A stretch of 56,749 nt of DNA from Prorocentrum cordatum (taxonomy: Eukaryota). Positions within the stretch are counted from its first letter, which is position 1, and each line of letters starts with the position of its first letter. The stretch spans positions 62,001 to 118,749 of the forward strand of contig CAUYUJ010000071.1 in assembly GCA_963575745.1 (NCBI GenBank). Reading direction: 5' to 3'. A program made the position numbers and the translations under genes. Positions 20,401 through 52,700 of this stretch are shown one piece after another. Under the pieces are notes generated by a model, which was not told where the DNA came from, searched no databases, and saw only the letters and a list, made by a program, of their open reading frames with translations.

Positions 20401-22358
20401 TGAGGCTGAGGCAGGCTGAGGCTGAGGCTGAGGCTGATGCAGGCTGAGGCTGAGGCAGGCTGAGGCTGAGGCTGAAGGCAGACTGAGGCTGAGGCTGAAG
20501 CAGGCTAAGGCTGAGGCTGAGGCTGAGGCTGAGGCTGAGGCAGGCTGAGGCTGAGGCAGGCTGAGGCTGAGGCTGTGACTGCGACTGCCGTTGCCGCTGC
20601 GACCGTCATCGCGAATGCGACTGCGACTGCGAGAACAGCAGAATTCTATAACTAGATTCTCATCTGAATCTTAAGGGGAATGCTTCCAAATATGCTCCTA
20701 CACATCGCTGTTAGGTTGCTTTGCCGGGATAATCACTTCCGATTAGCTACGGCCCCAAGATGGTCCAAGAAAGTCCCAAGAGGGGTCTAAGAGACCCCCC
20801 AGAAGGCCTCAAGAGCGTCCAGGAGCGCCCCAAAGGGCCCCAAGAAACGAGCTTACGGGCTCTACGGGGGGAGCGGTGCCAAACAAGGCCCCCCTTTTGA
20901 TCGATGGCCTCCAAGATGACCCCAAGAGGCCCTCCAGGGCTCCAAAGAGACCCCCAAGAGAGCTCCAAGAAGGCCCCAAGACCCCCCAGGGGAACCCCCA
21001 AAAGAACCCCCAGAGGGCCCCAAGAGGGCCCCGAGAGAGCCCCAAGACCCAAGAGGACCCTAAGAGGGCCTGAAGAAGATCCCGAGATGGCTGACAGAGT
21101 GTTCGTCCTCCTCGTCCTCGCCATCCTCGTCCTCTCCTCCTGCTCCTCCTCCTCCTCCTCCTCCTCCTCCTCCTCCTCCTCCTCCTCCTCCTCCTCCTCC
21201 TCCTCCTCGTCATCCTCCTCTGGGTCGTTGTTTTCGTTATTCACATTTCCCTCGTCCTCCTTCCTCCTCCTCCTCCTCGTCATCCTCCTCTTCTTCGTTG
21301 TTTTCGTGATTGTCATCTTCATCGTCGTCCTCGTCCTCGTCTCCGTCCTCTTCCTCCTCCACCTCCTTCTCGTCCTTGCCCTCGTCGTCATCCTCGTCCG
21401 TGTCATCCTCGTCCTCTTCTTCATTCTCATCCCCCTCCTCCTCGTTCACCTCCTCTCGTCGTCCTCCATACCATCCTCCCACTCCTCCTCCCCTCCTTCC
21501 CCACATCCTCAGTTCACCATAGTTGCCCGTCTTGATTCACTATATGTATCTCTCCCTCCAGATTCCCATCAACATTCATGGGCAGCGGCGTTTCCGAATG
21601 GGCGCATGGGGATTTTACGGCCGCAGGCGAACGCGCCAGCGGCGGGCGAAGTGGGTCGGGCCGCGACCGGCTTAAATTACCGACGGCTAACGCGCGCGAC
21701 TAGGCGGTCGCGGCGGCGCCGGATGCAGCAAGCAGCAACTGCGGCGAGGGTGAGGCTGATCCCAGGGGGAGCTGAACCCAGGGCAGAGCTGCAAGGTGAC
21801 CCAGGGAAACCCAGGGGACACCAAATTAGCCAAACCTGACACGCGCTGCCAAAATGGCGCGAAATCTGAAGAGGCGCCAGCCGAAGCGTCGCACACCGAC
21901 AGACCAAGTAATGACCGCTCAAAGGTAGGTAAACCTGCGTCCCAGGAGCAATCATGTGCACCGCTGTCCTTGCATAGCATAGCAAAAGCGCATGGGGATA
22001 CGCGAAGCGTGAATAATCCAGAGGACAGCATCATACTTGTCCAATCCCGTCCAAAGAACATCTTCCGTACGGAGTCAGGGGAGCGAGGAGAGTAGTATTC
22101 AGAATGTGTAAGTGTGAAGCGAGTGAGTGTGTCAGTCAGCCAGCAAATCGGTGAGTGAGGGAGCGGACGAGCGAGGGAGGGAGACGGGGCAGGAGGGAGG
22201 GAGGGACGGACGGACGGACGGACGGAGTGACGAGTGACGAGCGAGCGAGCGAGGTGCACAGTATGTACACAGGTGTGTATGGTCGAGGGGATCAGCAACT
22301 CGAACGAGTGATCAGGCGAGTAGGCATGATCCCCGAGCAGCAAAGCACCTACGACAAA

Positions 22359-26700: not shown

Positions 26701-29700
26701 GTCTTGTGGTACTCGCTGAATTGCAGCTTTCGGCCGGGGTACTTGGTGGAGCGGCACGGCGGCAACACTTCGATCTTCATGTCGTGCACTAATACGTGGC
26801 TCGGTTGTTGTCTCGTTCGTTCGTGCCGGTGCCCATTGTGCAAAATGCAGGTCTTGTCTGGATGAATGTGAAGGCCGGTTTTCGCCGCTTCTGTGCTGAG
26901 GTCGGAGAGCATCGTTGTAATGTCGCTGCTGGAGTGCGCGATCAGGAGGATGTCGTCGGCGAAACGTAAGTTGTTCAACAGCTCGCCACCATGGGCGTGC
27001 AATTTGGATCAAAATCTCCGTGCTGCCCACTTCTGTTTCACCACTCGCATAACATGTTCGGAAACAGAATTGAGAAGCAGGGAGCTGAGTGGGTCGCCCT
27101 GTTCCGTACCCCTTGCGATGTCGACGTTTTTGCTGCGACGGTCGGTGTGGATGGTTCCTGTGTGTTGGCTGACAGCTTCTGGAACAAATTGATATACGGA
27201 GTCGGAACTTGCTGTTCTCTGAGAGATTCCCATATGCTCGCGTACGTCACGGTGCCGACAGCCTTCTTGAAATCGACGGCTGCGATCCAGAGCGGGGCCT
27301 GCCACTCATCTGTGATATCGTGCAAGATCGTCGCTGTGAATAAATGGTCGGTTGTTCCTCGCTTGGGTCTGAAACCCGCCTGGTCTGGACTTTGCTGGTC
27401 GTCTAACGTATCTCCCAAGCGTGTGCATAAGAGTTTTGGAAATAACTTATACAACATTGGTATGCTTGCGATCGGTCGATAATTCTCCGGGCGCACTGGG
27501 TCCCCACCCTGATGTAGTACCTTTCTCACAATGTGTTTCCAACTGGAGGAAGCGGGTGAGTCAGGACGTAAAATGTTGTTGAAGTGTATCCCCTGTGTGT
27601 TCGGAGCCCGCTTTGTTTTCAACTGGCGTAGTGCTTCCGACAGTTCACGGTCACTGAAAGGAGGAATCGTATCTGCTTCGTTTGGGCCGTCGTATTTCTG
27701 ATGTTCTTTCTGCGCGTCGCTGTACAAGTTCGCATAGAAATCTGCAATTACGTCTGCTATGGCCCGTCTGTCGTGCTGTGCTTGGCCACTTGCATCCACC
27801 GTGCCTGGAATCAAGTCCTTTCCCTTGTAGCGTTTAATCCCACTGGTTCGCTTTAGATCTCTGTGTTGGGTGAGAATTCGATCGATAGCGGCTGTGCGAA
27901 CGGCTCGTTTGACAGCCCTGAGCTCCTTGCGGATGCTCTTGTTTCTGTGTGCTCGTGCTGTCGTGTTGGTGGCTGGTGTGTCCCGTCTTTTCTGGAGTAG
28001 TTGTGCAATAGTGCTGGTCGTTGTCGCTTGCGTGGTGCCGAGTGCGTCGGATTGCTCTGTTTGGTGTTGCCCCGTTAGCGCCTCGGCGATGTCGGCCTCG
28101 ATGTTCTCGCACTTGAGCTGGAGTCGAGCGTCGAGCAATGGCTTGTCCAACTTGTCTGTGAGAGAGTGGCGGTATGCAGGGATGTCGTGTGGAGCCCAAG
28201 CCGGGCGGTTCCGTCGTGGTCGACGCTGTTTCCCCTGTCGAATTGGTGCGTCTTGCTGGCTGCTGTGTCGGTGTCGTCCGGGTGGTCGGAATGTTAATCG
28301 TAACTCTCTGTGGTCGGAGCCGAGGTCGATGTCGTTCGTTGCCTCGCAGTCGACAGTTGCTCGCCATATGGGTTTGCTGGTCAATATGAAATCAATTTGG
28401 GGTTGCTGTTCTTCGGGTGATGTGTACGTGGTCATGTTGCATGCGTGCTTGTAGAAGTACGTGTTCGTAATTTGTAGTCTTTCCGTGGACACCCAATTCT
28501 TTAGCCACTGGCCTTGCACGTTGACGTCGCCATATCCACATGGCCCGAAGGTACGTCGGTCGTCCTGGGATTGTCGCTGCCCCACCCGTGCGTTGCAGTC
28601 CGCTCCGATGATGAAGGCGAGCTTCGTCAAGGTGGCATTCGGTGGAGTTCTTGCAGAATGCTGTACATTGATTGAATGCTCTTGTCACTGTATCCGCTAT
28701 GTGGGAAATAAGCTGAAACGATGCGCAATCTCAATCCAGACACCACGATGTCAGCATACCATAATAGCTCGCTGATCGGTTGGAAACAGCGGATAGCATT
28801 CGCAAAGTTGTTATTCGAACCCGGACCCCATGAATATATGCCCATCTTTGGACGCCCACTGTTCGTGCTTCTCTTGACGCCATCTGTCGTTGAGTGTTAT
28901 AAAAGCCCCAACATGTACCACGCCATTCTTGGAAAAGCTCCTCCACACGATCTTCCGAAATAAGTCCACGCACGTTTACCCTCATCAACATCAATATCGC
29001 CACGGTCATTATCAACAAATCGGTGGGGTCCTTCAGTAGCGCCCCGTGCCCAGGAGACCCGGTCCAAAACTCCGCCACCAGGCGGGAGTCTTGAGCTGTG
29101 GCCAAGTGCACTACAGAACACGCCCCCCCACACATATACGCACACATCAGCTTCATCATCCCCCATCATCCCTGCTCATCATTTACACCCCTGACTTTCG
29201 TAGGGCCCAGCGTGCCTGGGCTGTCTCCCGTCTTCGAGATGTCGATGCGCGCCCCGCTGTTCTGCGGGGGGGGGGGGGGGCGAGGGTGATGGCGACGAGG
29301 GAGAGGGGAACAACGACGACGTCCACGGTGACTTCAAGGTCCTCCTCTTTTCCCCTCGTCCTCCTCCTTCACCTTCTCCTCGGTCGGCCGGTCGGTCGAA
29401 AGGCAGATGAGTCGAGGCCTAGCCACAGGTGGGACAGAGCAAAAGGGGAAAAAGAAAGTGATGGCAGCACCGGCAGCGGCGCGGGGCGTCGGGCAGCTCC
29501 TGCCCACGCCAAGAGGCGCAGGCGGCGCAGCGAGGAAGGCTACACAGAACTCATCCACATGAGGAGTACTGCCCAGGGCGCAAAGAACAGCCTCCCTCCT
29601 GAACAAGACCAACTACTGTCCATAGACGAGCGCCCGCCAACAAGCGGAGCGCACTGGAAACTTATTACCACTTCGAGTGAGTGTACACTGGCGGGGCCCT

Positions 29701-32700
29701 TGGGCACAGCACACATTCAGCGACAGGCTCCCTCAGTGGAAATTGCTCTACTACATGCGTTGAGTCCTTTGGTCGGAAAGGGCAGGTACAGGAACAGGCA
29801 GCAGTGCAAGCACAGCCGCGACAGTGAATACTTCACACACCCCTGGTCAGTATACGTGGTTCCTGAATCATACAGTCCATAGCAATACATACCACCCGCC
29901 TCTCCCTGTGCGCCCACGAAACGTGTGAGGGGTGTGCCGAATCGGGCGCGGGCACGCCATGCGGACCATGCCGCTGGGGCCTTCGGTGGAGCTCCCCTCG
30001 GCGCCCACAATACGTGTGAGGGGTGTGCCGAGTCGGGTGCGGGCACGCCATGCGGACCCTGCCGTTGAGGCCTTCGGTGGAGCTCCCTTCTGCGCCCACG
30101 AAACGTGTGAGGGGTGTGCCGAGCCGGGTGCGGGCACGCCATGCGGACCCTGCCGTTGGGGCTTTCGGTGGAGCTCCCTTCTGCGCCCACGAAACGTGTG
30201 AGGGGTGTGCCGAGCCGGGTGCGGGCACGCCATGCGGACCCTGCCGCTGGGGCCTTCGGTGGAGCTCCCTATGGGGCGACGAAACGTGTGAGGGGTGTGC
30301 CGAGTCGGGTGCGGGTACGCCATGCGAACCCTGCCGCTGGGGCCTCCGGTGGAGCTCCCCTCTGCGCCCACGAAACGTGAGGGGTGTGCCGAGTCGGGTG
30401 AGGGCACGCCATGCGGACCCTGCCGCTGGGGCCTTCGGTGGAGCTCCCTTCTGCGCCCACGAAACGTGTGAGGGGTGTGCCGAGTCGGGTGCGGGCACGC
30501 CATGCGGACCCTGCCGCTGGGGCCTTCGGTGGAGCTCCCTTCTGCACCCACGAAACGTGTGAGGGGGGTGCCGAATCGGGTGCGGGCGCGCCATGCGGAC
30601 CCTGCCATTGGGGCTTTCGGTGGAGCTCCCTTCTGCGCCCACGAAACGTGTGAGGGGGGTGCCGAGTCGGGTGCGGGCACGCCATGCGGACCCTGCCGCT
30701 GGGGCCTTCGGTGGAGCTCCATTCTGCGCCCACGAAACGTGTGAGGGGTGTGCCGAGTCGGGTGCGGGCACGCCATGCGGACCCTGCCGCTCGGGCCGTT
30801 GGTGGAGCTCCCTTCTGCGCCCACGAAACGTGTGAGGGGGGTGCCGAATCGGGTGCGGGCACGCCATGCGGACCGTGCCGCTGGGGCCCTCGGTGGAGCT
30901 CCCTTCTGCACCCACGAAAAGTGTGAGGGGGGTGCCGAATCGGGTGCGAGTACGCCATGCGGACCCTGCCGCTGGGGCCTTCGGTGGAGCTCCCTATGAG
31001 GCGACGAAACGTGTGAGAAGTGTGCCGAGTCGGGAGCGGGCATGCCATGCGGACCCTGCCGCTGGGGCCTTCGGTGGAGTCCCCTATGGGGCGACGAAGC
31101 GTGTGAGGGGTGTGCCGAGTCGGGTGCGGGTACGCCATGCGGACCCTGCCGCTGGGGCCTTCGGTGGAGCTCACTATGGGGCGACGAAGCGTGTGGGGTG
31201 GTACACCCTGCCGCTCGGGCCTTCGGTGGAGCACCCTACGGGGCCACGAAGCGTGTGAGGGTGTGCCGAGTCGGGTGCGAGCACGCCATGCGGACCCTGC
31301 CGCTGGGCCCTTCGGTGGAGCCCCCTTATGCGCCCACGAAACGTGTGAGGGGTGTGCCGAATTGGGTGCGTGTACGCCGTGCGGACCCTGCCGCTGGGGC
31401 CTTCGGTGCAGCTCCCTATGGGGCCACGAAGCGTGTGATGGGTGTGCCGAATCGAGTGCGGGCACGCCATGGGGACCCTGCCGCTGGGGCCTTCGGTGGA
31501 GCTCCCTTCTGCGTCCACGAAACGAGTGAGGGGTGTGCCGAATCGGGTGCGGGTGCGCCATGCGGACCCTGCCGCTGGGGCCTTCGGTGGAGCTCCCCAT
31601 GGGGCCACGAAGCGTGTGAGGGGTGTGCCGAATCGGGTGCGAGTACGCCGTGCGAACCCTGCCGCGGGGGCCTTCGGTGGAGCTCCCCATGGGGCCACGA
31701 AGCGTGTGAGGGGTGTGCCGAATCGGGTGCGGGCACGCCATGCGGACCCTGCCGCTGGGGCCTTCGGTGGAGCTCCCTTACGTGCCGACGAAGCGTGTGA
31801 GGGGTGAGCCAAATCGGGTGCGGGCACGCCATGCGGACCCTGCCGCTGGGGCCTTCGGTGGAGCTCCCCATGGGGCCACGAAGCGTGTGAGGGGTGTGCC
31901 GAATCGGGTGCGAGTACGCCATGCAGACCCTGCCGCTGGGACCTTCGGTGGAGCTCCATATGGGATCACGAAGCGTGTGGGCAGGGTGCGCCAAATTGGG
32001 TGCGAGCACGCCATGCGGACCCTGCCGCTGGGGCTTCTGGTGGAACTCACTATGCGCCCACGAAACGTATGAGGGGTGTGCCGAGTCGGGTGCGGCTACG
32101 CCACGCGGACCCTGCGCCGGGGGCCTTCGGTGCAGCTCCCTATGGGGCCACGAAGCGTGTGAGGGGTGTGCCAAATCGGGTGCGAATACGTCATGCGGAC
32201 CCTTCCGCTGGGGCCTTCGTTGGAGCTCCCCATGGGGCCACGAAGCGTGTGAGGGGTGTGCCGAAGCGGGTGCGGGTACGCCATGCGGACCCTGCCGCGG
32301 GGGCCTTCGGTGGAGCTCCCTATGCGCCCACGAACCGTGTGATGGGTGTGCCGAGTCGGGTGCGGGTGCGCCATGCGGACCCTGCCGCTGGGGCCTTCGG
32401 TGGAGCTCCCTATGGGGCCACGAAGCGTGTGAGGGGTGTGCCGAATCGAGTGCGGGCACGCCATGCGGACCCTGCCGCTGGGGCCTTCGGTGGAGCTCCC
32501 CTATGTGCCGACGAAGCGTGTGAGGGGTGAGCCAAATCGGGTGCGGGCACGCCATGCGGACCCTGCCGCTGGGGCCTTCGGTGGAGCTCCCTTATGTGCC
32601 GACGAAGCGTGTGAGGGGTGTGCCGAATCGGGTGCGAGTACGCCATGCGGACCCTGCCGCTGGGATCTTCGGTGGAGCTCCATATGGGATCACGAAGCGT

Positions 32701-33392
32701 GTGAGCAGGGTGCGCCAAATTGGGTGCGAGCACGCCATGCGGACCCTGCCGCTGGGGCTTCTGGTGGAACTCACTATGCGCCCACGAAACGTGTGAGGGG
32801 TGTGCCGAGCCGGGTGCGGCTACGCCACGCGGACCCTGCGCCGGAGGCCTTCGGTGCAGCTCCCTATGGGGCCACGAAGCGTGTGAGGGGTGTGCCAAAT
32901 CGGGTGCGAATACGACATGCGGACCCTTCCGCTGGGACCTTCGTCGGAGCTCCCCATGGGGCCACGAAGCGTGTGAGGGGTGTGCCGAAGCGGGTGCGGG
33001 TACGCCATGCGGACCCTGCCGCTGGGGCCTTCGGTGGAGCTCACTATGAGGCAACATGACGTGTGAGGGGTGTGCCGAATCGGGTGCGGGTACGCCATGC
33101 CAACCGTGCCGCTGGGGCCTTTGGTGGAGTCCACCATGTGTGAGGGGAGCTCCCCATGGGGCAACGGTCCGTGTGAGGGGTGTGCCGAACGGGGTGCTGG
33201 CACGCCATGCGGACCCTGCCGCTGGGGCCTTCGGCGGGGCCCACTATGGGGCCATGAAAAGTGTTAGGGATGTGCCGAATCGGGTGCGGGTACGCCATGC
33301 TAACCCTGCCGCTGGGGCCTTCGGTGGAGCTCCCTGTGGGGCCACGAAGCGTGTGAGGGGTGTGTGTGTGTGCGTGTGCGTGTGTGTAAGAG

Positions 33393-33887: not shown

Positions 33888-36800
33888 AAGGGTGGTGGTG
33901 GTGTTGATGTTGATGTTGATGTTGATGCTGGTGTTGATGCTGATAGTGATGCTGATAATGATGATGCTGATGATGATGATGACGATGATGATGATGATCT
34001 TATTTCATTCATTGTGCCAGGGACGCTATTTGCTGCCAGGGGGCGAGGGCGACTGTCTCGCCAGCAGACGGGCGCGCGAGACAGACTGGGCAGCAGCCAA
34101 ACTCGAGAGACCAGAGAGGCGAGAGAGGGGGGGGAGGGAGGGAGACTTGAGCCGAGGCGGTTGCGGCACAGAGCATTGCAACGATCAAAGCACTACAAGC
34201 AGTTATATGATCTCATTTCATTCATTGTGCCAGGGACGCTATTTGCTGCCAGGGGGCGAGGGCGACTGTCTCGCCAGCAGACGGGCGCGTGAGACAGACT
34301 GGGCAGCAGCCAAACTCGAGAGACCAGTACTTGGCATCCCTGCAGACCCTGGCCCACGGCCGACAACATTATCAAACATTTACCGACGCAAGCTTACTGA
34401 GCCTCGCGTCGCGGAGGTTCGTCGCACTATTAACGAGCCAATCCGCACCCCACTGGGAAAACTCACGAGGGTATCTGTTCACGCTGAGAGCCCATGGGCG
34501 GCCAAGGGGATCGAGCGCCGTCAATCTGACGTGAAACTTGTTGTTGCCAGTGCACCTTCCACCGCGACCGTCACACAGAGGACGCGCGCTCAGTCGCGGA
34601 AAATCTGCGCCCCACGCCCACAGCTTAGTCGGGCGGGGGTGCAAGCCTCCGTACTGACAGAAGTTGAATTCGGCAGACTGCGAGGCTAGCGAGCACGCGT
34701 GCCTGAAAGAAGCGAGCGACGGCTGGGCCGAGCAGAGAGGGCATTCAGCTATAACAGGGACCCTTAATCGATGGCTCTCGAGGATCATGGCGGCGAGCGA
34801 ACCCCAGAAGCCCCGAGAGCGGGAGGAGGGGGGCCCAGGACCCGAGGAAGGAGAGGCCCACACCCCCAGGACCAGGGACCCCCGAAGCCACCCCAAGATC
34901 CTCTGGCGCACCGCGGGTCGAGACCAGTCAAGACCAGGATGCTTGTTGGGATCGAAACAGATGGCGGCGAATCCCCGAGCTCGCCAGCGCCGAACAATCG
35001 GCCACGAGGCGCTTCCAATCCCAATGAAAACCGAGCGAGGAAAAACGCAGGCAGCAGCAAGAGCTGCCGACAGCTGGCGCGTCAGATAGCCGTCCACCTG
35101 CTCGTCAGTGATGGTTTCACCTGGCCACGAGACGAGACGGCCCGCCTCGCGGGCACCGGCCACGGGAAAGGCGACCCCAGCGCTGCCGCCTCGATCAGCA
35201 TGACGAGGTGCGCGTCCACGCGCTGGCCGAACTCCATCACGTTGTCGGGCAGGTTGTTGATCTGCTGCTGGAGCTTGGTCCTCTTCGCGTAGCGGCGCAG
35301 TGAGGAGTCTGTGATCCACCTCCCGCGGTCCTTCACCTCGGGAAGGGAACGCCGCGCGGCCAGCAAGTCGTCGCTGGCCGCGCTGTGGCGCAGCACGTAC
35401 AGAGAGGGCTGCGCCTCCAGCCCCAGCAGCTCGGCCGCCTGGTTGAAGGCGTCGCGGACCTCCGCGACGTCGAAGTCCCACAGCGCCGTGCCGCCAGGAC
35501 GGGCGAGCTTGAGGGCCGCCCAGAGCGGCCACCAGTCCGTCTGATCCAGGGCCACGCTCTCGTCGGTGATCCCTGTCTTCCCAGGCCGCCCGTCCTCGCT
35601 CGGGTTGAGCACCAACCCCCACTCGCCGTAGCCCTTGCCTGCCAGCGGGTTCGGCGCCACCAGCGAATCGCCTCGAAGGCGAAAGGCCTCCGAGGGGCGG
35701 AGGTACGCCGCGAAGGAGAGAAGCACGAACATCGCGAAGGGCAGCTGGCCGAGCGAGATCATCGCGCCCACGATCGCCATCACGGCAGGCCGAGGGATCG
35801 GCAGCCGCACGCAGGGCGGCTTCAGCTTCTTCCAGCCGCCCAGCGCCCTGCACGCCCTCGGCAGCGCGGCGCGGGGGGGGCCCAGCGCTGGCAGCAGGTG
35901 TCGCAACGCCGACAGCGTTATCCGCCCCGTCGCCGTGTCGAAGCCGTCTAAGGCCAGGTGCGCCAGGAAGGCCGTCAAGATCACGTCGAGCTCCGACGAC
36001 GTAGTCCAGGACAGGCCCATCCACAGGCACCAGGTGACCAGCCTCTGGGCGTGCGCCGAGTAGCTCTTGGCGGTGGCGTCGGTGAGCGCCGCCGCCTCCA
36101 GGAAGCTCAGGCGGCCGCACTTCAGCTCCGTCAGGGACGCCTGGGGGGCGAGCCTCTGGCGCGCCAGCGTCATGGCGCGGGGAGGGCGCCTCCCGCGCCG
36201 AGGCCCGCGCGGCGCCGTCTCCACGTGGACGATCGCCCTGCCAGTGCGGCCCGACAAAGAAGCCCGACCTCGACGGGGCATCTGACGGGTTGAACTCCGA
36301 CGGCACCCAGCGCACGTACGCCCTGCAGCCCGTGGCGAGCAGCAGAGAGGTGATGCGGCGAAGAGGCCTGGTCAAATTTGCCGTCCGACCGCGGCCCTTG
36401 CCGGCGCTGAGAGCCAGAGCCAAATTGTCAACGAAGAGGAGGAGGCGGTGCCCCTGCAAGGGCCCCGAGCGCAGGAGGTGGCGGAGGGCGAACTCCAGAG
36501 CGTCCCCCTCAGACTCCAAAATGTTATTCCCCTTCGCGTGGACCCTGCTCGAGTGAACCACCTTCCAGTCGGTCTCCCTCAGGATCTCCTCGGGGACCTC
36601 CGTGAAGCCAGGGAGCCCCGCCCCGACGTCCAGGGCGTTCTCAAAGTTGGCGACGTCGTCCAGGCCCCGAAAACGCAGGAAAAGATGCCCAGGCGAATTT
36701 CCAGAATTTGCCGGGGCATCTTTTTGCACCATTTTTTCTGGTCGAAGTAGGCCCTCCTGACTTGATGAAGCCTCGTGAGCGTCTCCCAGAACGTGACCGG

Positions 36801-39800
36801 AAGGGCGCTGGACAGCAGAACTGGGGACCTCGGGCGAACCTGAAAGGGCATGTTGTCGAGCGGCTATGGCGTCATAGAACCTGTACCTGACCTTCTCGGC
36901 GAGACGACCGATCTCGGCGACGACGGGGACGGGCAGCGTGCGCCGACAGACCCCAATGCCATACCCCGACGAGTCAGACGCGGTGACATCGGGCGCCCAC
37001 GGCAACCGCCAAGACGTGGCCCACAGAGGCAATGTAGATTGGACCCACTGAAGCTCCCTGAGGACCCCGTCCCAGATCTTAGTCGGCTCCGGCGAACGAC
37101 TCCGCGAGAAAGCGAAAGTGGCCGACAGCATTGACAAGGTCTCCCGCCTGCTCAGCATGGCCCAAGTGATGTGACCGACTAAGGATGAGAGGGCACGGGG
37201 CGAAATCTTTCCGTGGCGCAGAACCGATCGAATTCCAAGCCGCAGGCGAGCAAGGCGGGCACACGGGACCCTCATGGCCCCCTTGATGCCGTCGAACTCC
37301 AGGCCTGTGAAGATCATGGATGTACGAGCACCCTGGACCTCGTGCACGGGCAAGTGATGACGAGACACAGCCTCTGAGATGCGCTGCAGCACGCGGTCAG
37401 CTAGCTCACGCGAGCCCGCGACCACGCAGAAGTTGTCGACATAGGCAGCCACGGCCCAGTCGTCAGTGCGCTGCAGCACGGTCGGCGGGGCCCCGTCGAC
37501 GATGAAGCGATGGCCCTCCACGGCCGCGTCTCGAACGATGATGTTGGTCAGAGCATCCTGGCAGAAATGCAAGGCCCAGTTCCAGCCCATGGGCATCACC
37601 AAAATCTCAGGCACCACGTCGATGTCCAGCCCCATGCCGTCCAAACGCAGAACCCGATTCGTGACACACGGAAGGGTGAAAGCGCGGGCCAGCTCCGAAG
37701 GCAGCTTCATGTGGTAAAAGGCGCACTGGATGTCCGCTGCCGCCATATAGCCGCTGACCTCGGGGCTGATCTCCATGCCTGCCCAGGACGCTGAAGTAGG
37801 TAACTTGGTCCCAGCAGGCTCCACGAATGAAAGGTTAGCAATGCGAGTGTCGAACACCATTCTCAGGCTCCCGTCCTTTTTGGTGACGAAGAACACGCCC
37901 ACTGAAGGCTGCTCCCGTTGCCGTCGAGGACGAAAGCGCAGCATCCCAGCCGCATCCAGTCGACGAAGAAAGTCGGCGTAGCGGTCGGGGCAGCTCAAAA
38001 GGAGAGGGTCGACGTAAGGCTTGACCAGTCCAGACTCCTTGCGCCTGGCGTCTGCCTCGGACTCGGAGACAAGCATACTCGTCCTCCATGACTCTAGCCG
38101 ATGCAAAGCGGCCTCGCTGCAGATATCGCCCAAAGGAGTGGGGGTCGTACCTGCGGCGGGCCAGGACACAGAGTCCTTGGCGTAGGGTCGCACCACGGTA
38201 TCGTCTTCGCAATAACCAGGTGTATGTCGGAGCAGCTCTTCGAGGGCGGCATCCGAGGTGGCCTTGTCGACAGGCATGTCAGCAGGCCACGAAAACGATT
38301 GAAATGAATCGGCAATGTGCTCCAGCGCCAGCCTCTGCGGTAAGTTAGCTGCACCATCGGGCGCCGAAACCTCGCGTCCACAACTGCGCTGGCCGTTGAG
38401 GTCGCTGAGGCTATCTATGCACTCGTTGGCCCAGACTCGCCAGGCAGCACCGCGATCACAACGTTGACGGGCACGACGAGAAACACAAAACTCCCGACGG
38501 GCGTCGACAGCGAGCCGAGGTAGGGGAAAGATATTGCGCTGGCGCTCGTCGGACGAGACCGCCATCGCGAAGCTGTGCAGCTCCTGGCCCGGGAAGTCCC
38601 AGCAGCCTCTGACGAGGGGCCTGCCACTGGAACGCGAAGCGCCGTGGGCTATTGACGCAACGCCCGCTCCTCGCGGGCCTTCCTGCGTTCTTTAGCCACC
38701 GCAGCCTCGGCTTTCAACTCGTCTGCAATCCACGTGCTGAGGAGAGGGCACACGCAAACGTTGCCGCGGCTCTCCTGCGCGCCGAGGAACAGGTTGTTCT
38801 CGACGCGATCGTCCAGCACGTTGCTCTTGTCCTTGTCCTTCTTGTCGTTACCCTTCGGCTTGAACGTCTGCTCAACCACCTTCTCTTCCAGGAGTTGGAG
38901 GCGACGTGCAGTCATCTCCAGATGCGAGAGCTCACCCACGTTGACCTGGTCATAGCACACCGCCAGCTCCAGGATGCGGCAAAGGAGGGCGTGCTCGCGC
39001 GTGATCGGGTCGTCCTCCGACATACGCCACTCCGACATCCACTTGGTGTGCCAAGCTGTCGGGGTCCCCGCCTGTCGCTGGATGTGGGCACACACCCAGG
39101 CGGCAGTCCTCGGACCACGCACAGGCCAATCCCTCCAGTTCGTCGATGAGTGGAGCATCGTTCCCTCACGGAAGTCCCTCCAGCGGTCGCCGCGGACGTC
39201 GATGCTCACGGCGTTGACGCGCAGGTCGGCTGGGGCAGCAGCCGCCGCAGGCGGGGCCGCCGCTGGCACCGCGAGCGCGCCCCCAGCCGCAGCCGCGGCG
39301 GGCACCGCGCCCGGCGCCGCAGCGGCCGGCGGCGCGGCCGCGGCCGCGGCGGCGGGCGGGGCCGGCAGTGCAGGGGCCCCAGGCGCGGCGGCGGGCGCGG
39401 CGCCCGCGCCCGCCAGGGCAGCCACCAGGCCAGGCATCGCGACGCCCCCTCCCGGCGCTGCTGCCGCAGCGCCTGCGCCTCCAGCGGCCGCCATCGCCTC
39501 TGCAGGGGCCCCCGCGGCAGGCCCGCCAGGTGCGCCAGGCACCGCCGCGGGCTGCGGCGCAGGGTCAGCAACCACGTGATTGCCCACCGCGAGGCCGCCC
39601 ACGTTGCCAGCGGCCAAGGGCATGTTGGCGGGCGACGCGGGGCGGCCGCCTCCGAAAAGCGCGGCCGCCTCCATGATGCCAGCCCACACGTCGGCGTCGG
39701 ACGGCAGCGCTCTGAAGCCGTACACGCGAAGCCCAGCTGGCCTCTCGCCCTGCCCTGCTATCATGATGATGCCCGCGATGTCGGCATCTGGAGTGCCACT

Positions 39801-42800
39801 CTCTTCATATCGATCACCGTCAGGCGTGATGACGTATACTGTCGTCCCAGGCCCGCGCCACACAATGAGCCGCTCATGCCACACGTGCGCGCCAGGCACT
39901 CGATATCTGACGAGCGCCCAATGCAACTGGTGAGCCATATTCACGCAGTAGAGGCCTTCTTATCTCTGACGGCCCTCGCCTGGGCGCGGGCCGTTTCCTC
40001 GAAGCTGGCAGCAGGCGCCTCGGCGGCGGGGCTGCTCTCCGCCCTGCGGGCAAGCAGCGCGCCTCCTGCGGCACCGACGGCCAGGCCGACGGTCAGCGCG
40101 GCCGCCGCGTAGGCCGCGATGAGCCCCCCGCACGAGGGCTCGGGCACCTGGCCGCCAGCGCCCGCGCAGACACAGGCGGGGATGGCGGGGCAGGTGAGCT
40201 GCGGCGCGCAGGCCCCGCAACTCGGCGCGGCAGCGCGTGCCACCACGGAAGCTCCCACAGCCTGAGCCCCGTATCGCAGAATGTCTGAAAAAGATGCGAC
40301 GATGTCTTGCATGGGAGCCACACAAATTAAGACTTGAGCCGAGGCGGTTGCGGCACAGAGCATTGCAACGATCAAAGCACTACAAGCAGTTATATGATGA
40401 TGATGGTGATTATGGTGATGGTGATGGTGATGGCGACGAGGAGGGCAGAGGCAAGGAGGGGGAGGACGGAGGAGGAGGAGGAGGGGGAGGAGAAGGATGC
40501 GGGTACTGTCTCTTCAACACGAGGACCCAAGACCACAGGATAGTTGGGAAGAAAAGATTAGGAAACCATACTTATGACGGAACCGTGGCTTACAAAGGGC
40601 GCATCTGGCGCCGAGATGACTGCGAACTTGGTGCATATCGCTGACGATGGTATCCACTTCCCAGAGCTGCTCTGATCAATCCCAGCATGCCCCGCTCCCC
40701 AGGTGCAAACTAGAAGCTCGCGCCCAATGAGGGCGAGCACAGCTGTGGCACAAAATGCCAGTGGTGTGGCTGCTAGGGCTTGTGGCGGGCAAGCTGAGAG
40801 CTGTCCTTTTTCACGTGGCTGCCCTTTCTCGATCCTCCTCCGCCTCCTCCTCCTTCTCCTCCTCCTCCTCCTCCTCCTCCTCCTCCCCCTCCTCCTCCTC
40901 AATCAAGCCAGGGGCTCAAGCCTGGTCCAAGCATGGGGCTCGAGCGGGCGCCTGTGCTCCTCCCGGGGCTTGGTGTCCACTTGTGTGCAGCTGCGGCTTG
41001 AGGTCGTCGTTTTCCGCTCCGCGGCGTTCGGGGACAAAGCGGCGCAACACCACGTCTAACTCAGTCCTTCACCGTGGTGCTCGAGGTATTGGCGTGGTGG
41101 TTTCTCCGCCCATCCGTGTCGCACATTGTTCGTTGGTGCATCGCGAGCCTGCGCGCATTTCCACTGATATGGTCATTGTGCAGTTCGACGTTCTGGTGGG
41201 ATGCGGCTCAGGTGGATTTCCAATGGAAGGGCTTAAGGGATGAGCCGTGGTAGCTAACATTCACTTCGCCCTCGAGCCTGGTGTGCCCTGGTGCCTCATC
41301 GGCTTCTGGAGGGTTTCTTGGTGTGTCTGCTGCGATGTGGATGTGGCCTCTGGCCTAGGCTTTCTGCGTTGTTTTCTGTGTTGTCGTGCTGATGCAGGTG
41401 GAGATCTTCATCTATGTGTTGGCCACGCTTTATCCTCATGGGCCTCATCGTGCGGGTGAGGTTTGCACGCGTATCGCGTCTTGTTGTACGCGGCTACAGC
41501 ATGGGCGGTGTGGCGAGTCATAGCAGGCCAGCTCTGGTGCAGTACTTCGGCAAAGTGTTGACGCTGTGTTTTCTCAATAGTTTGTCTGGCTGGTGGTTGA
41601 AAGTAGCTTGCAGCTCGCTACACACCTTGTGAGTTTTGCTGGGCTGGGCATTGCGATTCAATCATAACGGACGGCACCGTATCGGGTGTGCTTTCATCAT
41701 TATCGTCTTCGCCTTTATTTCCTACGCGGTCATGAAGTGATCGGGCGGCCTACCCAGCAGGAGAACCCTTCCCTTTAGCGTAATCAGAATCAGAATCATG
41801 ATCTCCTCCTCCTCCTCCTTCTCCTACTCCCCTCCTCCTCCTCCTCCTCATCATCGTCATCGTCATCATCATCGTCATCATCATCATCAACATCATCATC
41901 ATCAGCAGCATCATCATCAGCATCATCATCACCATCATCATCATCAGTATCAGCATCATCATCAACATCATCCTTCTCTATTATCATCCCTTCTTCTCCA
42001 CCTCAGCATCGTCGACGTCATAGACATCATCGTCATCATCGTCATCGTCATCATCGTCATCATCATCGTGGCCCGCCGCTCCGGCGCCCACAGCCAGCCC
42101 GCCTCCGCCGACGGCCCTGGCCGGCGCCAGACCTGCGTTCGCGGCAGCCGCTCCAGCGGGCGCGACGTCAGCGCCTCCGGCCCCACCAGCTGAAGGGACG
42201 ATGGCGCCAGCCCCTGACCCAACGGCACCAGCAGGCAAAGACCCCAGCCACCGCCAAGAGCGCCGCGTCGTGCGCTGCAAGCACCGGCGTGGCCTGGGCC
42301 ACGAAGGCGGCAAGCTCGGCGGCCGTGAGCGGCTGGGCGAAGTCGTACACGGCGACGCCCGCTCTCGCCAGCGGCGGCGTGATGGTCCCGCCCTCGCGGA
42401 TGAGCGCGCGCCCTGGGCCGACCCTGTACCAGTGGCGGAGGTCGTCGTTGTCCTCGGTGAAGTACTCGACGAAGAGGCCGCGGTCTGGCGACACAACTCC
42501 TGCGTGGCGAACGTCCAAACCAACGATACCCATCACCGCACGCGCGTGAAGCAATGGAAGCCCTGCCACGCCATACGCCACAAACAATTGATATCCGACA
42601 TTCATAACCGGTTGGCCGTCGCAAGCAGCCCGCATCCACGAGCGACTCGACGAACGAGGACAATCGGCAAGGTGGCCAGGACATCCCTCGGCTCCGCCTC
42701 GATCCCTGCCAGCGGCCGCCGGCGGCAGCCCCGGCAGATCACGTTCCCCGCCGCCCTCAAGCAGCGCGAGGCGAGCACCCGCACCAGGAGCGGCAGGAGA

Positions 42801-43531
42801 CCGAACGAGACCTCGAAGCCCCAGGAGATCTCGTTCTTGACCGGCTCGGGGCAAGCCGGGCAGAGATCAGGCCACACCAGCTCCACGGGCGGCGCCGCCA
42901 CGGGCAAGCACCGCTCCAAGCCCGCGCACAGCTCCTCGGCCAGCGCGGGGGTCGGCGGTCCGGCCGCCGGGCAGCTCCGCGCTGGCGGGTCTGGAGCCCG
43001 CGCCGCCGAAGGCGACGCATGGCGACGGGCTGGCGCCGGCGGCGCAGGCCCGGCACGCGGCGCGAGCCACCACTGGCTCCGCCACGCGCTGCGCGCGTGG
43101 AACGCCGGCAGAGTCGCCGCCTGGCCCGCCTGGCGCAGCCATGCCGCGCCGAGGGTTCGGGCGGCCTCGGGCCAGACGGGTCGAGCAGGACAGGGCAACA
43201 CCTTGGACCAGGCAGAGCAAGAGGCCAGAGGGAGGCGACGAACGGCGACACGGCACAGCACACACAGCACACACAGCACACACAGACACACAACACAACA
43301 CAACACTACACTACACTACACTACACTACACTACACTACGCTACACTACACAACACTACACAACACCGAACGAGCGAGGACAAGGAGAAAAGGGCGGTAG
43401 CTGGCGATTCGAAAAAGGCTTGTGCCGAAGCGGTTGCGGATGCAGCCGCGCGGCCCGTTTCCGCATCACGACTACTGTTCTAGAACTGCCCATCAGAACT
43501 TTCTTCATCGTGTCATCGTCAGCATCATCAC

Positions 43532-46700: not shown

Positions 46701-49700
46701 TGTTCTCAACCCTCATGCCAGCTGAGGGGGCCGAAGGCCCACCCTCATGAGAAGCACCCAGACAAGCGAAGCCGTGTGCTCAGTAAACTCACCCAAAGAA
46801 GGAACCGAATGGGGCAGGACTGCTTAGCAGACGCCCAGGGTGGGGGGCCACATGCGAACCCCACCCCTACCCCACAAGATTTTTGGGGGGGGAGGGTGGG
46901 GTTCACTTCGATCGGAAGCTCCCCCTCAGAAATCGTGGGGGGCAGGGGCAGGGCTCGCCTGTGGCCCCCTGCAGGGCTGTCTAGCAAACTTCAGCTACAC
47001 CGTGGGGGTCGCGGTGCTTCCGCCCCTCCGAGCCGTGCCGACCGGCCGGGCGGCGGGGCTCCTCGGAGGCCCTCCGACCTTCTTCTGCAGACCACTCTCT
47101 GTCTTCGGGGGAGGCTCAGAACAGTCCCCGGCAGGCCAGCGGACTTCCGAGCCTTCTCGGAAGGCCCGCGCCTTCCCCTCGCTTCCCCCCCCCCACCGGC
47201 TCGCCGCCGGCTTCTGCATGGCTGCGCGCGCTGATCGCACTCAAACTGGACGCGTGGTTCCACACGGCGCCCTCCGGCGCACTGCTTTCTTCGATACGTG
47301 GCGTCTGTAGTTAGGTCGGGCCTGTCCCCCTACAGGAGGATTTTGGACGGAAAAAAGCATAGTCAAAACATACTCCAACAAATATTCAAAGATAGTCAAA
47401 GACTCGTCCACTGACTATTTTCACTATTTGAACACTCCTCCTGTAGAGGGATGCCTGACTTACGTCTGGAGCTCCGCAGAGAGGGATGACTATTTTTACC
47501 TAACAGCGAAGACTGATAGGTTTCTAATGGTCTCAAAAGAAAGCATCATGACTCCCCAAAGGGGTCCGGGCGGCATCCGGGGAGAATCCGCGGAAATCGT
47601 TTTAAGCAAACAGTTACACACTTCGTGGTCTTCGAGGTCCCAGAACTCCATTCCCGGGCCACATTCTGAATGCCCGGAGCCAACTGTAGGCCACTTCGTG
47701 CTCTTCGAGTTCCCAGAATTCCATTCCTGGGCCACATTGTGAATGCCCGGAGCCAACTGTAGGCCACTTCGTGCTCTTCGAGTTCCCAAAACTTCATTCC
47801 CCGGCCACATTTTGAATACCAGGAGCCAGCTGTAGGCCACTTCGTGCTTCGAGTTCCCAGAACTCCATTCCAGGGCATGATTTTGAATGCCTGGAGCCAA
47901 CCGTAGGCCACTTCGTGGTCTTCGAGTTCCCAGAATTCCATTCCTGGGCATGATTTTGAATGCCTGGAGCCAACTGTAGGCCACTTCGTGGTCTTCGAGT
48001 TCCCAGAACTCCATTCCTGGGCATGATTTTGAATGCCCGGAGCCAATTGCAGGCCACTTCGTGTTCTTCGAGTTCCCAGAACTCCATTCCCGGGCCACAT
48101 TTTGAATGCTGAGCAGGCTGAGGCTGAGGCTGAGGCAGCTGAGGGCAGGCTGAGGCTGAGGCTGAGGCTGAGCAGGCTGAGGCTGAGGCAGGCTGAGGCT
48201 GAGGCCGAGGCTGAAGGCAGACTGAGGCTGAGGCTGAAGCAGGCTGAGGCTGAGGCTGAGGCAGGCTGAGGCTGAGGCTGAGGCTGAGGCTGAGGCTGAG
48301 GCTGAGGCTGAGGCTGAGGCTGAGGCTGAGGCTGAGGCTGAGGCTGAAGCAGGCTGAGGCTGAGGCTGAGGCTGAGGCTGAGGCAGGCTGATGCTGAGGC
48401 AGGCTGAGGCTGAGGCTGAGGCTGAGGCAGGCTGAGGCTGAGGCTGAGCCGAGGCTGAAGGCAGACTGAGGCTGAGGCTGAAGCAGGCTGAGGCTGAGGC
48501 TGAGGCAGGCTGAGGCTGAGGCTGAGGCAGGCTGATGCTGAGGCAGGCTGAGGCTGAGGCTGAGGCTGAGGCTGATGCAGGCTGAGGCTGAGGCAGGCTG
48601 AGGCTGAGGCTGAGGCTGAAGGCAGACTGAGGCTGAGGCTGAAGCAGGCTGAGGCTGAGGCTGAGGCAGGCTGAGGCTGAGGCTGAGGCAGGCTGAGGCT
48701 GAGGCTGAGGCTGAGGCTGAGGCAGGCTGAGGCTGAGGCAGGCTGAGGCTGAGGCCGAGGCTGAGGCTGAGGCAGACTGAGGCTGAGGCTGAAGCAGGCT
48801 GAGGCTGAGGCTGAGGCTGCTGAGGCTGAGGCTGAGGCTGAGGCTGCTGAGGCTGAGGACTGTTGATCTGCTGAATGCCTGCGACTGCGAGAACTACAGA
48901 ATTCGACTGCGAGAACAGCAGAATTCTACAACTGGATTCTCATCTGAATCTTAAGGGGAATGCTTCCAGATATGCTCCTACACATCGCTGTTAGGTTGCT
49001 TTGCCGGGATAATGTTACTATTTTTTGAATTTTCCTCCTGTAGAGGGACACACACGCCCGGCCCCTCTCCCTTCCCCCACACGCTCGCCGCAGCCCTCAA
49101 CCCCCATGCCAGCCGCAGCCCCTTTCGCCCCTCCGAGCCTTGCCGACCAGCGGGCCAGCGGGGCTTCTCAGAAGCCCTCCGGCCTTCTGATCCTCCTCCT
49201 CCTCCTCCTCCTCCTCCTCCACCTCCTCCTCCCTCCTCCTCCTCCTCCTCCTCCACCTCCTCCTCATCTCCTCGTTACATTCTCGACATCATCACCACCA
49301 CACCACCACAATCATCGTCACCGTCCTCCTCCTCCTCCTCCTCCTCCGCGCCTCCTCCTCCTCCCTCCTCCTCTCTCGTTTCATTCTCGACATCATCACC
49401 ACCAACACCACCACAACATCGTCACCCGTCGTCATCCTCCTCCACCTCCTCCTCCTCCTCCTCCTCCTCCTCCTCCCCTCCTCCTCCTCCTCCCTCCTGC
49501 CTCCTCCGCCACTTCCTCTCCTCCTCCTCCTCCTCCTCCTCCTCCTCCTCCTCCTCCTCCTCCTCCTCCTCCTCTGCCCCCGATCGGGTGGCGATCCAGG
49601 CGCGCCCTCTTGGATCACCTCAGGCATACAACATTTCTCAACTGCCGGATAGTCAGGAGATCGCCTGAGGGACTCGCGCGCCGTGGAGTTGTTCGGGAGG

Positions 49701-52700
49701 CTCGGGCACCCTCGGCTCTGCTGGTCTTGACGCTGGGACCGCTGGTGCGCTGCCGGGCGCGGCGGCGCACGGTCCCCCCGCGGCGCCTCGTGCCCAACCG
49801 GCTGAGGCCCCTGAAGCGGCGATGGTCGAACCAGCGCGTCTCTTCCAGGAGGAGGTCGTCGAGGCGCCCGTGGAGCTCAAGTTGGATCTGCTTCTACCGG
49901 TGCCGCTGCGCCGTGGCACGGCCCCCCTCCACATCGCCACCATCAACGGGGACACGTGGCAAGGGGCTCGCACGGTGCTGGAGTGGAACGCTGCAGCCGG
50001 CAGGCGCTTTGACGTGGCCTTCGTTCAGGAGACGAGGTTCCCCGACTCCGAGGCGGCTGGGGGCGCTCGCCAGTGGTGCTTGGGCCAGGGCTGTCATCTT
50101 GCCCTGGGCCCTCCTCGTCGGACTGGCGCTGAGCGTCTGGCTGTCAGTGGCGGCGTGGGCCTCTGCATCGGCACGCACATTGGGGTCTTCAGTGGCATTG
50201 CTGTCCCTGATGAGTGGAGCCATCGCATTGTGGCCAGGAAGATCCACCTCGGCGAGGGCTCGGTCCTCTTGGTGATCTCTCTCTACATGATCACCTCCAT
50301 CGGCCTCACTGGTGATAACCTGGCGCTCCTTGCGGAGGTGGCGTCTATTGTTGGGCAGTTCCCTGTGCCCTTCATCATCGGCGCCGACTGGAACGTTGAC
50401 GCCCACGACCTTGTGGCCAGCGACTGGTGCCAGGAGGTGGACGGGATCATCGTCAACCCTGGTGTCCCGACATGCGGGGACAACGAGTACGACTACTTCG
50501 TCATGTCCCGCTCGCTGGCCCACCACACCTCCCACCCTCAGGCGTTTGCTGGCACACCTGCCGGCACTCATGTTCAGGTGTGTTGCACCCTGGGGGATAT
50601 TTGGGAGCATCCGACGGCTTGGCTGGAGGATCCTCGGCGGCCCTTCTCAGTAGCCAGGAAGGCTGTCGGATCTGAGGAGTCGGTCAAGCCCAGGGAGCAG
50701 CCCACCTCCGAGTCGCAGCGGGAGGCTGCGGAGTTGCTCGAGCCCTTGGAGTGTTTGCAGACAGCCAGTGCGAGGTGGTTCGACCTAGCCGAGGCCTCTC
50801 TCATCCGCTCCCAGCAGATTGACTTATCGGTTGCTCATCACCACCGTGGGCGAGGTCGAGGCATTCGTCTGGTGGAGCGGCCTTTGCTTGAAGTCCATGA
50901 GCGGCGGCAGCGCCGTCACGACTCGTCCGACACCGAGGCTTGGTGGAGCCTTCTTCGCATTTGGAGAGCAATGCTTCGGTGGGGGCAGGCCAGCCGTGGT
51001 TCTCGCGGCAAGCGACAGGTGGTGCGTGCCCGCCTTCATCTTCAGGCCCAGGCCCTGACATTACCTCCAGCTGTGGCTGGTGCCGAGGCCCTTCGTACGG
51101 TGGCCGTCGACAAGTGGCTTGGGCTTGCTGAGCGGGACAGCCCTCTTTCTGCTTGGTTTGAGGATCTTCTCGAGGAGGAGGTGGCCGTGCGCAGGCGAGC
51201 TGACGCGGCTGCCAAGGCCAAGCTATGGCGAGATTTTTGCAAGTCGGCCCTCGACGGCCCCGGGAGGATTGCGCACAAGCTTATTAAGCCGAAGATTGTC
51301 GAGCCTCTCCCTGTATCCCTGCCTGGCGACGTTGATTCCCTGCCGCAGGTGGGCTCGCTGGCGGTTGAGGGTGTTTTGCAGGAGTGGCTTCCGCTTTGGA
51401 TCAAGGACTCGAGGAATGATGAGCAGCACGCCTCCGAGTGGAATGTGGCGACAACCCTTGAGCCCATCAGTGTCTCGCAGGTGCGCTCGGCCATCCTCTT
51501 CTTCGGCAGGAGGAAAGGCCTGGGCTGGGACTCCTTTCATCCGCGGCTGCTTGGGGAGCTCTCGGACGCCTTGGTTGCTCGATTTGCGGCCATCTTAAAC
51601 CGGTTTGAGCTCACTGCCGAAGTCCCCGAGCTTTGGACGACGATGTTCGTTTTCATTCCCAAGCCTCCTCCTGACGTCGGCCGTCGGCCGATAGGGCTCC
51701 TGGGCCTATGGCCCCGCGTATGGTCCAGGGTACGACAGCAACGAGTTCGCGGTTGGGAACACAGTGTGGATGCCAGCTTCTTTTGGGGCAAGTCCGGCGA
51801 TACGGCGGCCGACAGAGCTGCTTACATCCACAACCTGCTGGTGGTGCATGCTAAGCGCCACGGCTTCGTCAGCGGCACTCTGTACTACGACGTGCGGAAG
51901 TTTTACGAGAACATCTCCCACGGCGCCATGCGCGAGGCTGGCAGGCACTACGGCTTTGACGAGCAGCTGCTGCGATGCCTGTGCGCGGTCTACCGTGGAC
52001 CCAGGCGGGCCCGCTGGCTTGGCGCGACCTCGCGCCTGGTTGTCCCCAACGGCACGGTGATCGCGGGTTGCAGCTGCGCGACTGGCACCGTGAAGCTCAT
52101 GACCCTGTGCGTTTTACGGACTATTGCCATTGAGACGCCTGTCTGCCGGCCGCTGAACTTGGTGGACGACTTGAAGGTGCATGCTGTGGGTTCTCTCCGC
52201 ACTGTGGCTCGGCAATTGGTCAAAGCAGCCACGATTGTAGCCACTCAGATGAATGAGCTCGACCTTCCGCTCAACTTGGACAAGACCTGCTTCCTGTGTT
52301 CGAGCCCTGAGTTGCTCGAGGCTCTGCTGGACGACCCCGACTGGCCGTTCGACGAGTCCTTCCTGGCCACCACCCACCGTGACCTGGGTGGCGACGCTTC
52401 TGACGGCAAGGCTCGCCGCGTGCCTGTGCAAAACAAGCGCCTCCTCGAATCGTCGGCCGCTGCGACTCGGCTCTCGAAGATTGGGCGGGGGAGGGAGGCT
52501 TCTCGGGTGCACAGAGCGGGCCCAGTCGCTAAGGCCACGTGGGGGGCGCACATTAATGGTCTTGGGAATTCGGCTCTGAGGACTCTGAGGGTGGCCTCTG
52601 CCAGGTCTTTTGGCCCCCTCCAGCCTGGATCCTCCCTCGGCCTCACCTTCCTTCTTTGCGGGGCCCCCCAGCGGGATCCTCTTGTTTCGACGACGGTGGA

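Follow-up and report, generated by a model that had tools for sequence, protein, structure and literature searches.

A spliced-leader-like box closing the terminal repeat of a DIRS-order retrotransposon in Prorocentrum cordatum, a candidate trans-splice acceptor and template-jump site

Trans-splicing replaces the 5' end of every mRNA, which raises the question of how an autonomous retrotransposon can replicate in a host that treats its transcripts in this way. A stretch of Prorocentrum cordatum DNA of 56,749 nucleotides (nt) (contig CAUYUJ010000071.1; hereafter the window) suggests a specific hypothesis on this point, as it holds on its minus strand, at 33994-40398, a tyrosine recombinase (YR) retrotransposon with a box resembling the dinoflagellate spliced leader (DinoSL; SL, spliced leader) near the end of its terminal repeat. 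The explanation that we tentatively favour, with slightly less than even confidence, is that this box is a worn, element-encoded descendant of the SL, which may have been kept both as a trans-splice acceptor and as a short homology by which the 5' terminal copy of the repeat (A1) would be regenerated from the internal copy (A2).

Self-comparison of the window revealed that the element is built in the order A1, internal region, B1, A2, 28-nt spacer and B2, that is, in the split-direct-repeat layout of YR retrotransposons. The two copies of the 69-nt repeat A (A1, 40330-40398; A2, 34143-34211; both on the minus strand, as are all parts of the element) are 100% identical, and upon base-by-base extension their identity breaks off immediately on both sides. 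The 121-nt repeats B1 (34327-34207) and B2 (34114-33994), the latter being the 3' terminal repeat, are 98.3% identical, and the spacer between A2 and B2 (34115-34142) consists of pyrimidines only. The last 5 nt of B1 overlap the first 5 nt of A2, and this junction core, ATCAT, is present at the B1/A2 junction (34207-34211) as well as at both outer ends of the element (33994-33998 and 40394-40398), where it forms the end of B2 and the first five bases of A1, respectively. Both flanks (33940-33993 and 40399-40440) are (CAT)n/(ATC)n microsatellite, so that ATCAT is found at the junction, at the ends and within the target, as expected from a circle junction recombining with a short target core rather than from a staggered cut with target-site duplication. 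The location of the core within (CAT)n suggests a site preference of the recombinase for this microsatellite. By its layout and coding content (see below), the element is a young DIRS-order YR retrotransposon of the Ngaro/PAT-like split-direct-repeat type.

The box (a D base plus a 21-mer, gCCGCAACCGCCTCGGCTCAAG) is read on the minus strand at 40354-40333 in A1 and again at 34167-34146 in A2, and a third copy, tCCGCAACCGCTTCGGCACAAG, lies on the same strand at 43440-43419, outside the element. Within A1 it is preceded by 44 nt of repeat A, which contain the motif ATATAA, and is followed by TCT, so that the boundary of A falls 3 nt after the terminal AAG of the box, and the box ends 20 nt upstream of the ATG of the first open reading frame (ORF1). 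These sequences and coordinates, and the end of the A1/A2 identity 3 nt after the AAG, had been reported in a preliminary description of the locus and were all reproduced here. Since the 69/69 identity of A1 and A2 includes all six positions at which the box departs from DinoSL, the box is inherited with the element and not renewed from the host leader in each cycle. Among short Logan contigs of four DNA runs, one variant covers A2 (about 34128-34214); it has three substitutions and also two insertions upstream of the box, and among the rows listed no change fell inside it, an anecdotal observation.

As reference we used the canonical DinoSL 21-mer as present at metagenome locus L002:182-202, a sequence which makes up 127 of the at least 140 matches obtained in a metagenome scan with a transition-degenerate pattern. 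Aligned to this reference without gaps, the box of repeat A matches, in agreement with the preliminary description, at 15/21 positions and all six differences (positions 4, 6, 9, 10, 11 and 13) are transitions, whereas the third copy (43439-43419), likewise at 15/21, differs by five transitions and one transversion. The preliminary description had also reported that the two boxes match each other at 19/21, and this agreement, which we likewise obtained, is expected only 5e-5 times per window, so that the two are truly related. Four of the six departures from DinoSL fall into the Sm motif AUUUUGG, which lies in the DinoSL exon (PMC5029490) and reads GCCTCGG in the box, and two destroy the internal AG that serves SL relicts as next acceptor (PMC5585692, PMC3229502); the terminal AG and the preceding GGCTCA are retained. 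The first base of the box, G, is rare in canonical sites (5/127).

The position of the box relative to coding sequence was defined by ORF1 (39941-40312; ATG at 40312, stop at 39943-39941), which encodes a small Cys-rich protein. Homologs were found in both protein searches (13 representatives in a full HMMER search and eight clusters in a word-indexed search), and ORF1 is therefore a real gene; members of the family share a Cys-rich block (C..C...C....C.C), a hydrophobic segment and a basic tail. Five homologs (P0010, P0024, P0025, P0015 and P0016) begin at a Met (MQD) aligned with the ATG at 40312, which places the box in the non-coding 5' leader.

The third copy of the box (43419-43440) is accompanied by a decayed ORF1-like frame with a VVARAA..C..C block (42870-43142), detected by DNA Smith-Waterman alignment and, weakly, by hhalign, and by a stretch resembling the N-terminal part of gag (42291-42620; tblastn, 25% identity over 117 amino acids (aa)). 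Box, ORF1-like block and gag-N-like block follow one another in the same order and on the same strand as in the element, which lends moderate support to the view that this fragment is the decayed 5' part of a distant relative. At the DNA level, the segment 43080-42995 aligns with 40255-40159, the VVARAA..C..C part of ORF1, with a Smith-Waterman score of 45 (shuffles 25+-3, maximum 38), whereas the non-coding flanks of the third box do not align with the element. The earlier statement that the DNA around the two boxes is dissimilar hence holds for these flanks, with the exception of this second weak block downstream; as to the similar distance of both boxes from a 5' end, that end is, in the fragment, marked by a microsatellite edge about 75 nt upstream and is defined by no repeat.

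Further information on the leader was obtained from relatives in the European Nucleotide Archive (ENA). Six ORF1 clusters together list 38 members, and in 18 of these the predicted gene extends upstream across the leader and thereby translates it. All 18 read-throughs carry W-L-K-V-Q-A at -8 to -3, and A-[D/V]-A-[T/A]-P-S-A occupies -16 to -10 in 17/17, while two markedly different haplotypes, which seem to be the same DNA in shifted frames, occupy the columns from -17 to -25. W-L-K dictates TGG-(CTN/TTR)-AAR at 15 nt before the ATG, which allows for the nine bases at the 3' end of DinoSL, TGGCTCAAG, and the residue before W (L in 10, S in seven, a start-codon M in one) points to TTG/TCG. The P. 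cordatum element itself reads its GGCTCAAG box as SAQV, in another frame than W-L-K; because the frames of the box differ in this way and the upstream haplotypes look frameshifted, the conservation appears to act at the nucleotide level. In a gapless comparison anchored at the AAG, 11 of the 13 codon-fixed positions of the subfamily are identical to DinoSL and eight to the element's own box, and the L-variant has the DinoSL base at all three fixed positions (10, 11 and 13) at which the own box departs from it.

As judged from these predicted leaders, the ENA subfamilies and the element studied here have in common an SL-3'-like box shortly before ORF1, under this alignment as well as under the alternative one considered below, and the relatives have preserved its 3' end best, the 5' half drifting between subfamilies. 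With the 3' GGCTCAAG staying in place beside a drifting 5' half, a box derived from the SL and retained on account of its 3' end is a better fit than a full-length mimic under maintenance. The maintained element-encoded leader of the preliminary description is thus retained in part: the box is encoded by the element, heritable (A1 = A2) and located in a non-coding leader, but would be kept for its 3' end. Its recurrence is supported by the third copy and, as SL-3'-like W-L-K, by the 18 read-throughs, whereas the divergence between families relies on the fragment, the homology of which is weak. A related observation concerns the P. cordatum-like gene model P0013 (1009 aa), a chimera of host-like sequence with ORF1 and gag pieces, which contains S-F-W-L-K, the in-frame product of the leader's last four codons TTT-TGG-CTC-AAG, about 330 aa upstream.

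How might such a box be of use to the element? According to the general DIRS model, the RNA is subgenomic and regains its full length by means of termini copied internally in the element (PMC7192593). In a trans-splicing host, everything upstream of the acceptor would be lost from the element mRNA. If the AG of ...GGCTCAAG| acted as acceptor for the host DinoSL, splicing at the box would remove the upstream ATGs seen in the read-throughs of the relatives and leave a 5' untranslated region (UTR) of 15-20 nt (20 nt in the present element). The 11 nt formed by GGCTCAAG and TCT would then be common to the SL-capped mRNA and to A2, and could provide the homology for a jump of the complementary DNA (cDNA) from the 5' end of the mRNA into A2, whereby the lost part of A would be recopied and A1 would always be a copy of A2. 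The 5' half of the box, in which Sm motif and internal AG have already gone, would be free to drift. Such a combined acceptor and jump model would explain why the box lies at the very end of A, why the repeat boundary follows 3 nt later, why the 3' half is better kept and why A1 and A2 are identical. A wider proposal, to which we assign a low probability, is that YR elements adapted their split-direct-repeat replication to a trans-splicing host, with the box as leader acceptor and cDNA landing pad, and that the same SL homology could allow reverse transcriptase (RT) switching onto SL-capped host mRNAs.

Several observations weigh against an SL-derived acceptor and landing pad. The jump would have to occur early, within the 11 nt, since copying of the whole SL would give A1 a canonical SL, which is absent. 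The leaders of the relatives are read from predicted proteins, in which neither L nor K fixes its third codon base, and an alternative alignment, in which the own box is joined by insertions of 3 and 8 nt, is equally possible. Under this alternative the 5' part of the subfamily leader is nearly identical to that of the own element, the W-L-K box is an extra SL-3'-like 12-mer, and the argument from the three fixed positions fails; an IUPAC-aware alignment of the back-translated relatives to the own leader was low-scoring and ambiguous. The homology of the fragment with the element is weak (hhalign E = 0.21 for ORF1, and E = 4.1e-4 with a probability of 35% for the gag-N stretch). Finally, none of the 125 loci listed from the metagenome scan (at least 125 loci in total) encodes a relative of the element proteins, of ORF1 or of the other RTs of the window. 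Four metagenome matches that differ from the SL at four positions seem to be accidental: L016 and L095 lie, by eye, in an apparent groEL gene of bacterial type, L042 resembles a prokaryotic contig in being densely filled with ORFs on both strands, and the contig of L080 is low in GC (0.34). A narrow pattern gave one unrelated match (L001) in viral contigs.

The resemblance to DinoSL may also be accidental, the box being a conserved cis element (an R-like segment, a start, packaging or protein-binding site) with no evolutionary link to the leader, a possibility that we regard as unlikely overall but by no means negligible. A match of 15/21 to DinoSL is by itself at chance level: matches of at least 15/21 are expected 1.16 times per window under a binomial model and 1.05 times in 300 windows simulated with a first-order Markov model, 65% of which hold at least one. 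The window itself holds six 15/21 matches and none better, and three of the six are unrelated to the box, namely 36414-36434 in the RT ORF, and 31803-31823 and 32526-32546 in a 91-bp satellite. No canonical DinoSL is present anywhere in the 56.7-kb window, and the longest exact stretch in the box, GGCTCAAG, measures 8 nt and hence falls below the relict criterion of Song et al. 2017, an exact DinoSL match of at least 9 nt within 500 bp upstream of an ORF (PMC5585692). An accident of this kind would nevertheless have to place the SL-like match exactly on the sole non-coding island of strong conservation, which closes repeat A 20 nt ahead of ORF1. It would also have to yield departures by transition only, and matches of at least 15 with transitions only occurred in 0/300 simulated windows, a pattern that was spotted post hoc and whose weight is to be discounted accordingly. 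Moreover, the TGG-CTN-AAR of the subfamily, with its T-rich codon ahead, is nearer to DinoSL than the own box is (11/13 versus 8/13 positions). Taken together, the coincidence of place and the transition-only pattern make an SL origin the better fit, and the greater closeness of the subfamily to DinoSL agrees with it under the gapless alignment only.

If the box is derived from an SL, it could act as a true mimic, with transcription starting at its first base and the unspliced RNA imitating an SL-bearing mRNA in translation, export or stability. Judging by the leader features at hand, this would be improbable. The DIRS model puts the start site inside the terminal repeat (PMC7192593), and the box does lie within the last 25 nt of A, downstream of 44 nt with their ATATAA; it is of full length, has an allowed first base and is followed by a short UTR and an ATG. 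On the other hand, a mimic would carry six mismatches, four of them in the Sm motif and its T-run, and a first base found in few canonical sites, the subfamily differs by substitutions or indels within the box, and the predicted ORFs of the relatives stay open up to 95 aa upstream of the ATG. Nor does the leader fold in an outstanding manner: a hairpin was rejected as it folds no better than shuffles (z-scores -0.5 to -0.9). A second SL-3'-like stretch before the ATG (about 40323-40313) needs a 3-nt gap, is not significant by a rough estimate and was not used. Capture of an SL RNA gene promoter was rejected, the 44 nt of A upstream of the box having no similarity to the flanks of the 127 canonical SL sites. 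The box is not an SL RNA gene either, as it is followed by TCT in place of a GT donor, has an altered Sm stretch and gave no Rfam family at gathering score; sub-threshold matches to small nucleolar RNAs fall on microsatellites.

A somewhat more doubtful alternative is an inert relict, in which the SL would have been captured once by reverse transcription of a trans-spliced element mRNA and would now be decaying without function. In dinoflagellates, mRNA recycling commonly leaves SL relicts, whose identity decays to 50-100% (PMC3229502), and the variation of the 5' half between subfamilies agrees with such decay. Yet the box is kept at 19/21 where the flanks are unalignable, it forms the most invariant leader block in the 18 read-throughs, next to the variable columns -17 to -25, and three lineages have kept GGCTCAAG or codons equivalent to it. 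Relicts are, in addition, truncated after nt 7, stacked, or both, whereas the box is of full length and no stacked truncated relict was found in the window, where the single match of at least 12/15 to the truncated SL form (51391-51405) is unrelated; with its 8-nt exact match, full length and lack of a stacked truncated copy, the box is not a standard relict.

The notion that the box encodes an N-terminal extension of ORF1 from an ATG at 40363 (MLCAATASAQV...) was rejected on frame grounds and is highly improbable: the frame is open from 40363 into ORF1 and box A and the fragment differ in two nucleotides, both of them at synonymous third codon positions (two of two, p about 0.1), but homologs start at MQD, the subfamily reads W-L-K where the own element reads SAQV, and the fragment has no in-frame ATG upstream. 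An alternate-frame translation of the leader gave no protein match.

As to the remaining coding content of the element, ORF1 lies upstream of a gag-like ORF (P0002, 38649-39959), which aligns with P0012 (46% identity) and P0013 (67%), and is fused to gag in P0012. No Pfam family matched ORF1, and a search of viral and genome contig collections with its profile yielded no relative; an ORF1-type frame is not among the DIRS-order domains named in the available text of PMC5890265 and PMC7192593. The pol frame (P0001, 34372-38691) contains a putative RT at about 37012-38094, followed, by eye, by an RNase H-like stretch. Its match to RVT_1 (E = 7.5e-4, 19.7 bits) stays below the cut-off of 29.6, and its relatives, P. 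cordatum proteins with 44-61% identity and ENA metagenome proteins, include P0005 and P0007, which carry PF00078. The recombinase is encoded in a frame other than pol (35082-36371) and matches the PHROG_1 integrase (E = 3.9e-5) and Pfam Phage_integrase (E = 0.011, below the family cut-off), with no match among PDB sequences. The last 260 aa of the pol frame (34375-35154), past the YR ORF, matched neither a Pfam family nor a PDB sequence and could, by position, correspond to the methyltransferase-like domain that DIRS elements have or to a degenerate DNA methyltransferase (DNMT) as in SymbioDIRS; no DNMT was recognisable in the element by Pfam match. Parts of the element are present in marine metagenome runs.

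Elsewhere in the window, a satellite array of about 3.4 kb (29900-33364) is composed of a 90-91-bp unit, two units of which have 15/21 and two more 14/21 matches to DinoSL, all taken as chance. A 1692-aa frame of an element resembling long interspersed nuclear elements (LINE) occupies 49669-54744 on the plus strand; its N-terminal part resembles an apurinic/apyrimidinic endonuclease (by eye), its match to RVT_1 is weak (E = 7.8e-4), and it has no SL-like match of at least 14/21 on its strand. A further RT fragment is found at 27041-28684 on the minus strand (RVT_1, E = 2.7e-11, above cut-off), and a block of about 1.6 kb with GGCTGA-type tandem repeats is duplicated at 19155-20733 and 47493-49013 (87.7% identity). 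Microsatellite arrays are abundant in the window, and the decayed relative at about 43.5 kb also adjoins one.

The preliminary description knew of no such box in DIRS-order elements, and among the papers listed by a full-text literature search none was found that links DinoSL to DIRS elements or an SL to YR elements; an SL-like box in YR elements is not mentioned in the available text of PMC5890265, PMC12014239, PMC5585692 and PMC6681497. SL relicts at retrogenes and DIRS-like elements of dinoflagellates are each known; their combination appears to be new. Dinoflagellate genomes are full of retrogenes tagged by SL relicts, and the box offers a specific hypothesis on which elements make them and how: if the proposal is true, RT switching onto host mRNAs driven by SL homology would be a concrete mechanism for the massive formation of retrogenes in this group. 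Were the box only a worn relict, it would still show that the element's own mRNA was once recycled via its trans-spliced form.

Among known systems, SIRE supplies trans-splice acceptors in a trans-splicing host. The VIPER/SIRE pair of Trypanosoma cruzi is close to the present element in that VIPER is a YR retrotransposon with the order A1...B1-A2-B2, SIRE corresponding to its A2-B2 region, and differs in that no SL-like box is reported in the available text (PMC6681497). The SymbioDIRS and DIRS-like elements of Symbiodinium (de Mendoza et al. 2018, PMC5890265) share the A-coding-B-A-B layout, the dinoflagellate host and a separate YR ORF, and have a divergent RT barely seen by Pfam, as the putative RT of the present element would be; for these, the available text mentions no SL-like box, and the present element differs by the lack of a recognisable DNMT and by its extra small ORF1. 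DinoSL relicts (Slamovits and Keeling as cited in PMC3229502; Song et al. 2017, PMC5585692) are alike in being genome-encoded SL-like sequences just upstream of an ORF, with the terminal AG kept and presumably left by reverse transcription of trans-spliced RNA. In contrast to these, the box described here is part of the terminal repeat of an autonomous YR retrotransposon, has a second copy in A2, is of full length and unstacked with a longest match of 8 nt versus the required 9 or more, and has lost the T-run thought to act as promoter motif.

In other trans-splicing organisms, Pr77 of the L1Tc/ingi type (PMC5814959) is likewise a short conserved 5' leader tied to gaining a usable RNA 5' end in an SL organism, but it is an internal promoter and ribozyme with unspliced transcripts and has no resemblance to an SL. 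The trypanosome site-specific non-long terminal repeat retrotransposons SLACS and CZAR also have their 5' end tied to the host SL, which they borrow by inserting into SL RNA genes between exon nt 11 and 12 (PMC5814959). The P. cordatum element, by comparison, carries its box with it and sits in a (CAT)n microsatellite, with no canonical SL in the window. In the RNA of retroviruses and long terminal repeat elements, the R region provides a short terminal homology that lets the nascent cDNA jump and thereby restores the lost end. The mechanism proposed here would be alike, except that the leader providing the homology would be one that the host adds in trans.

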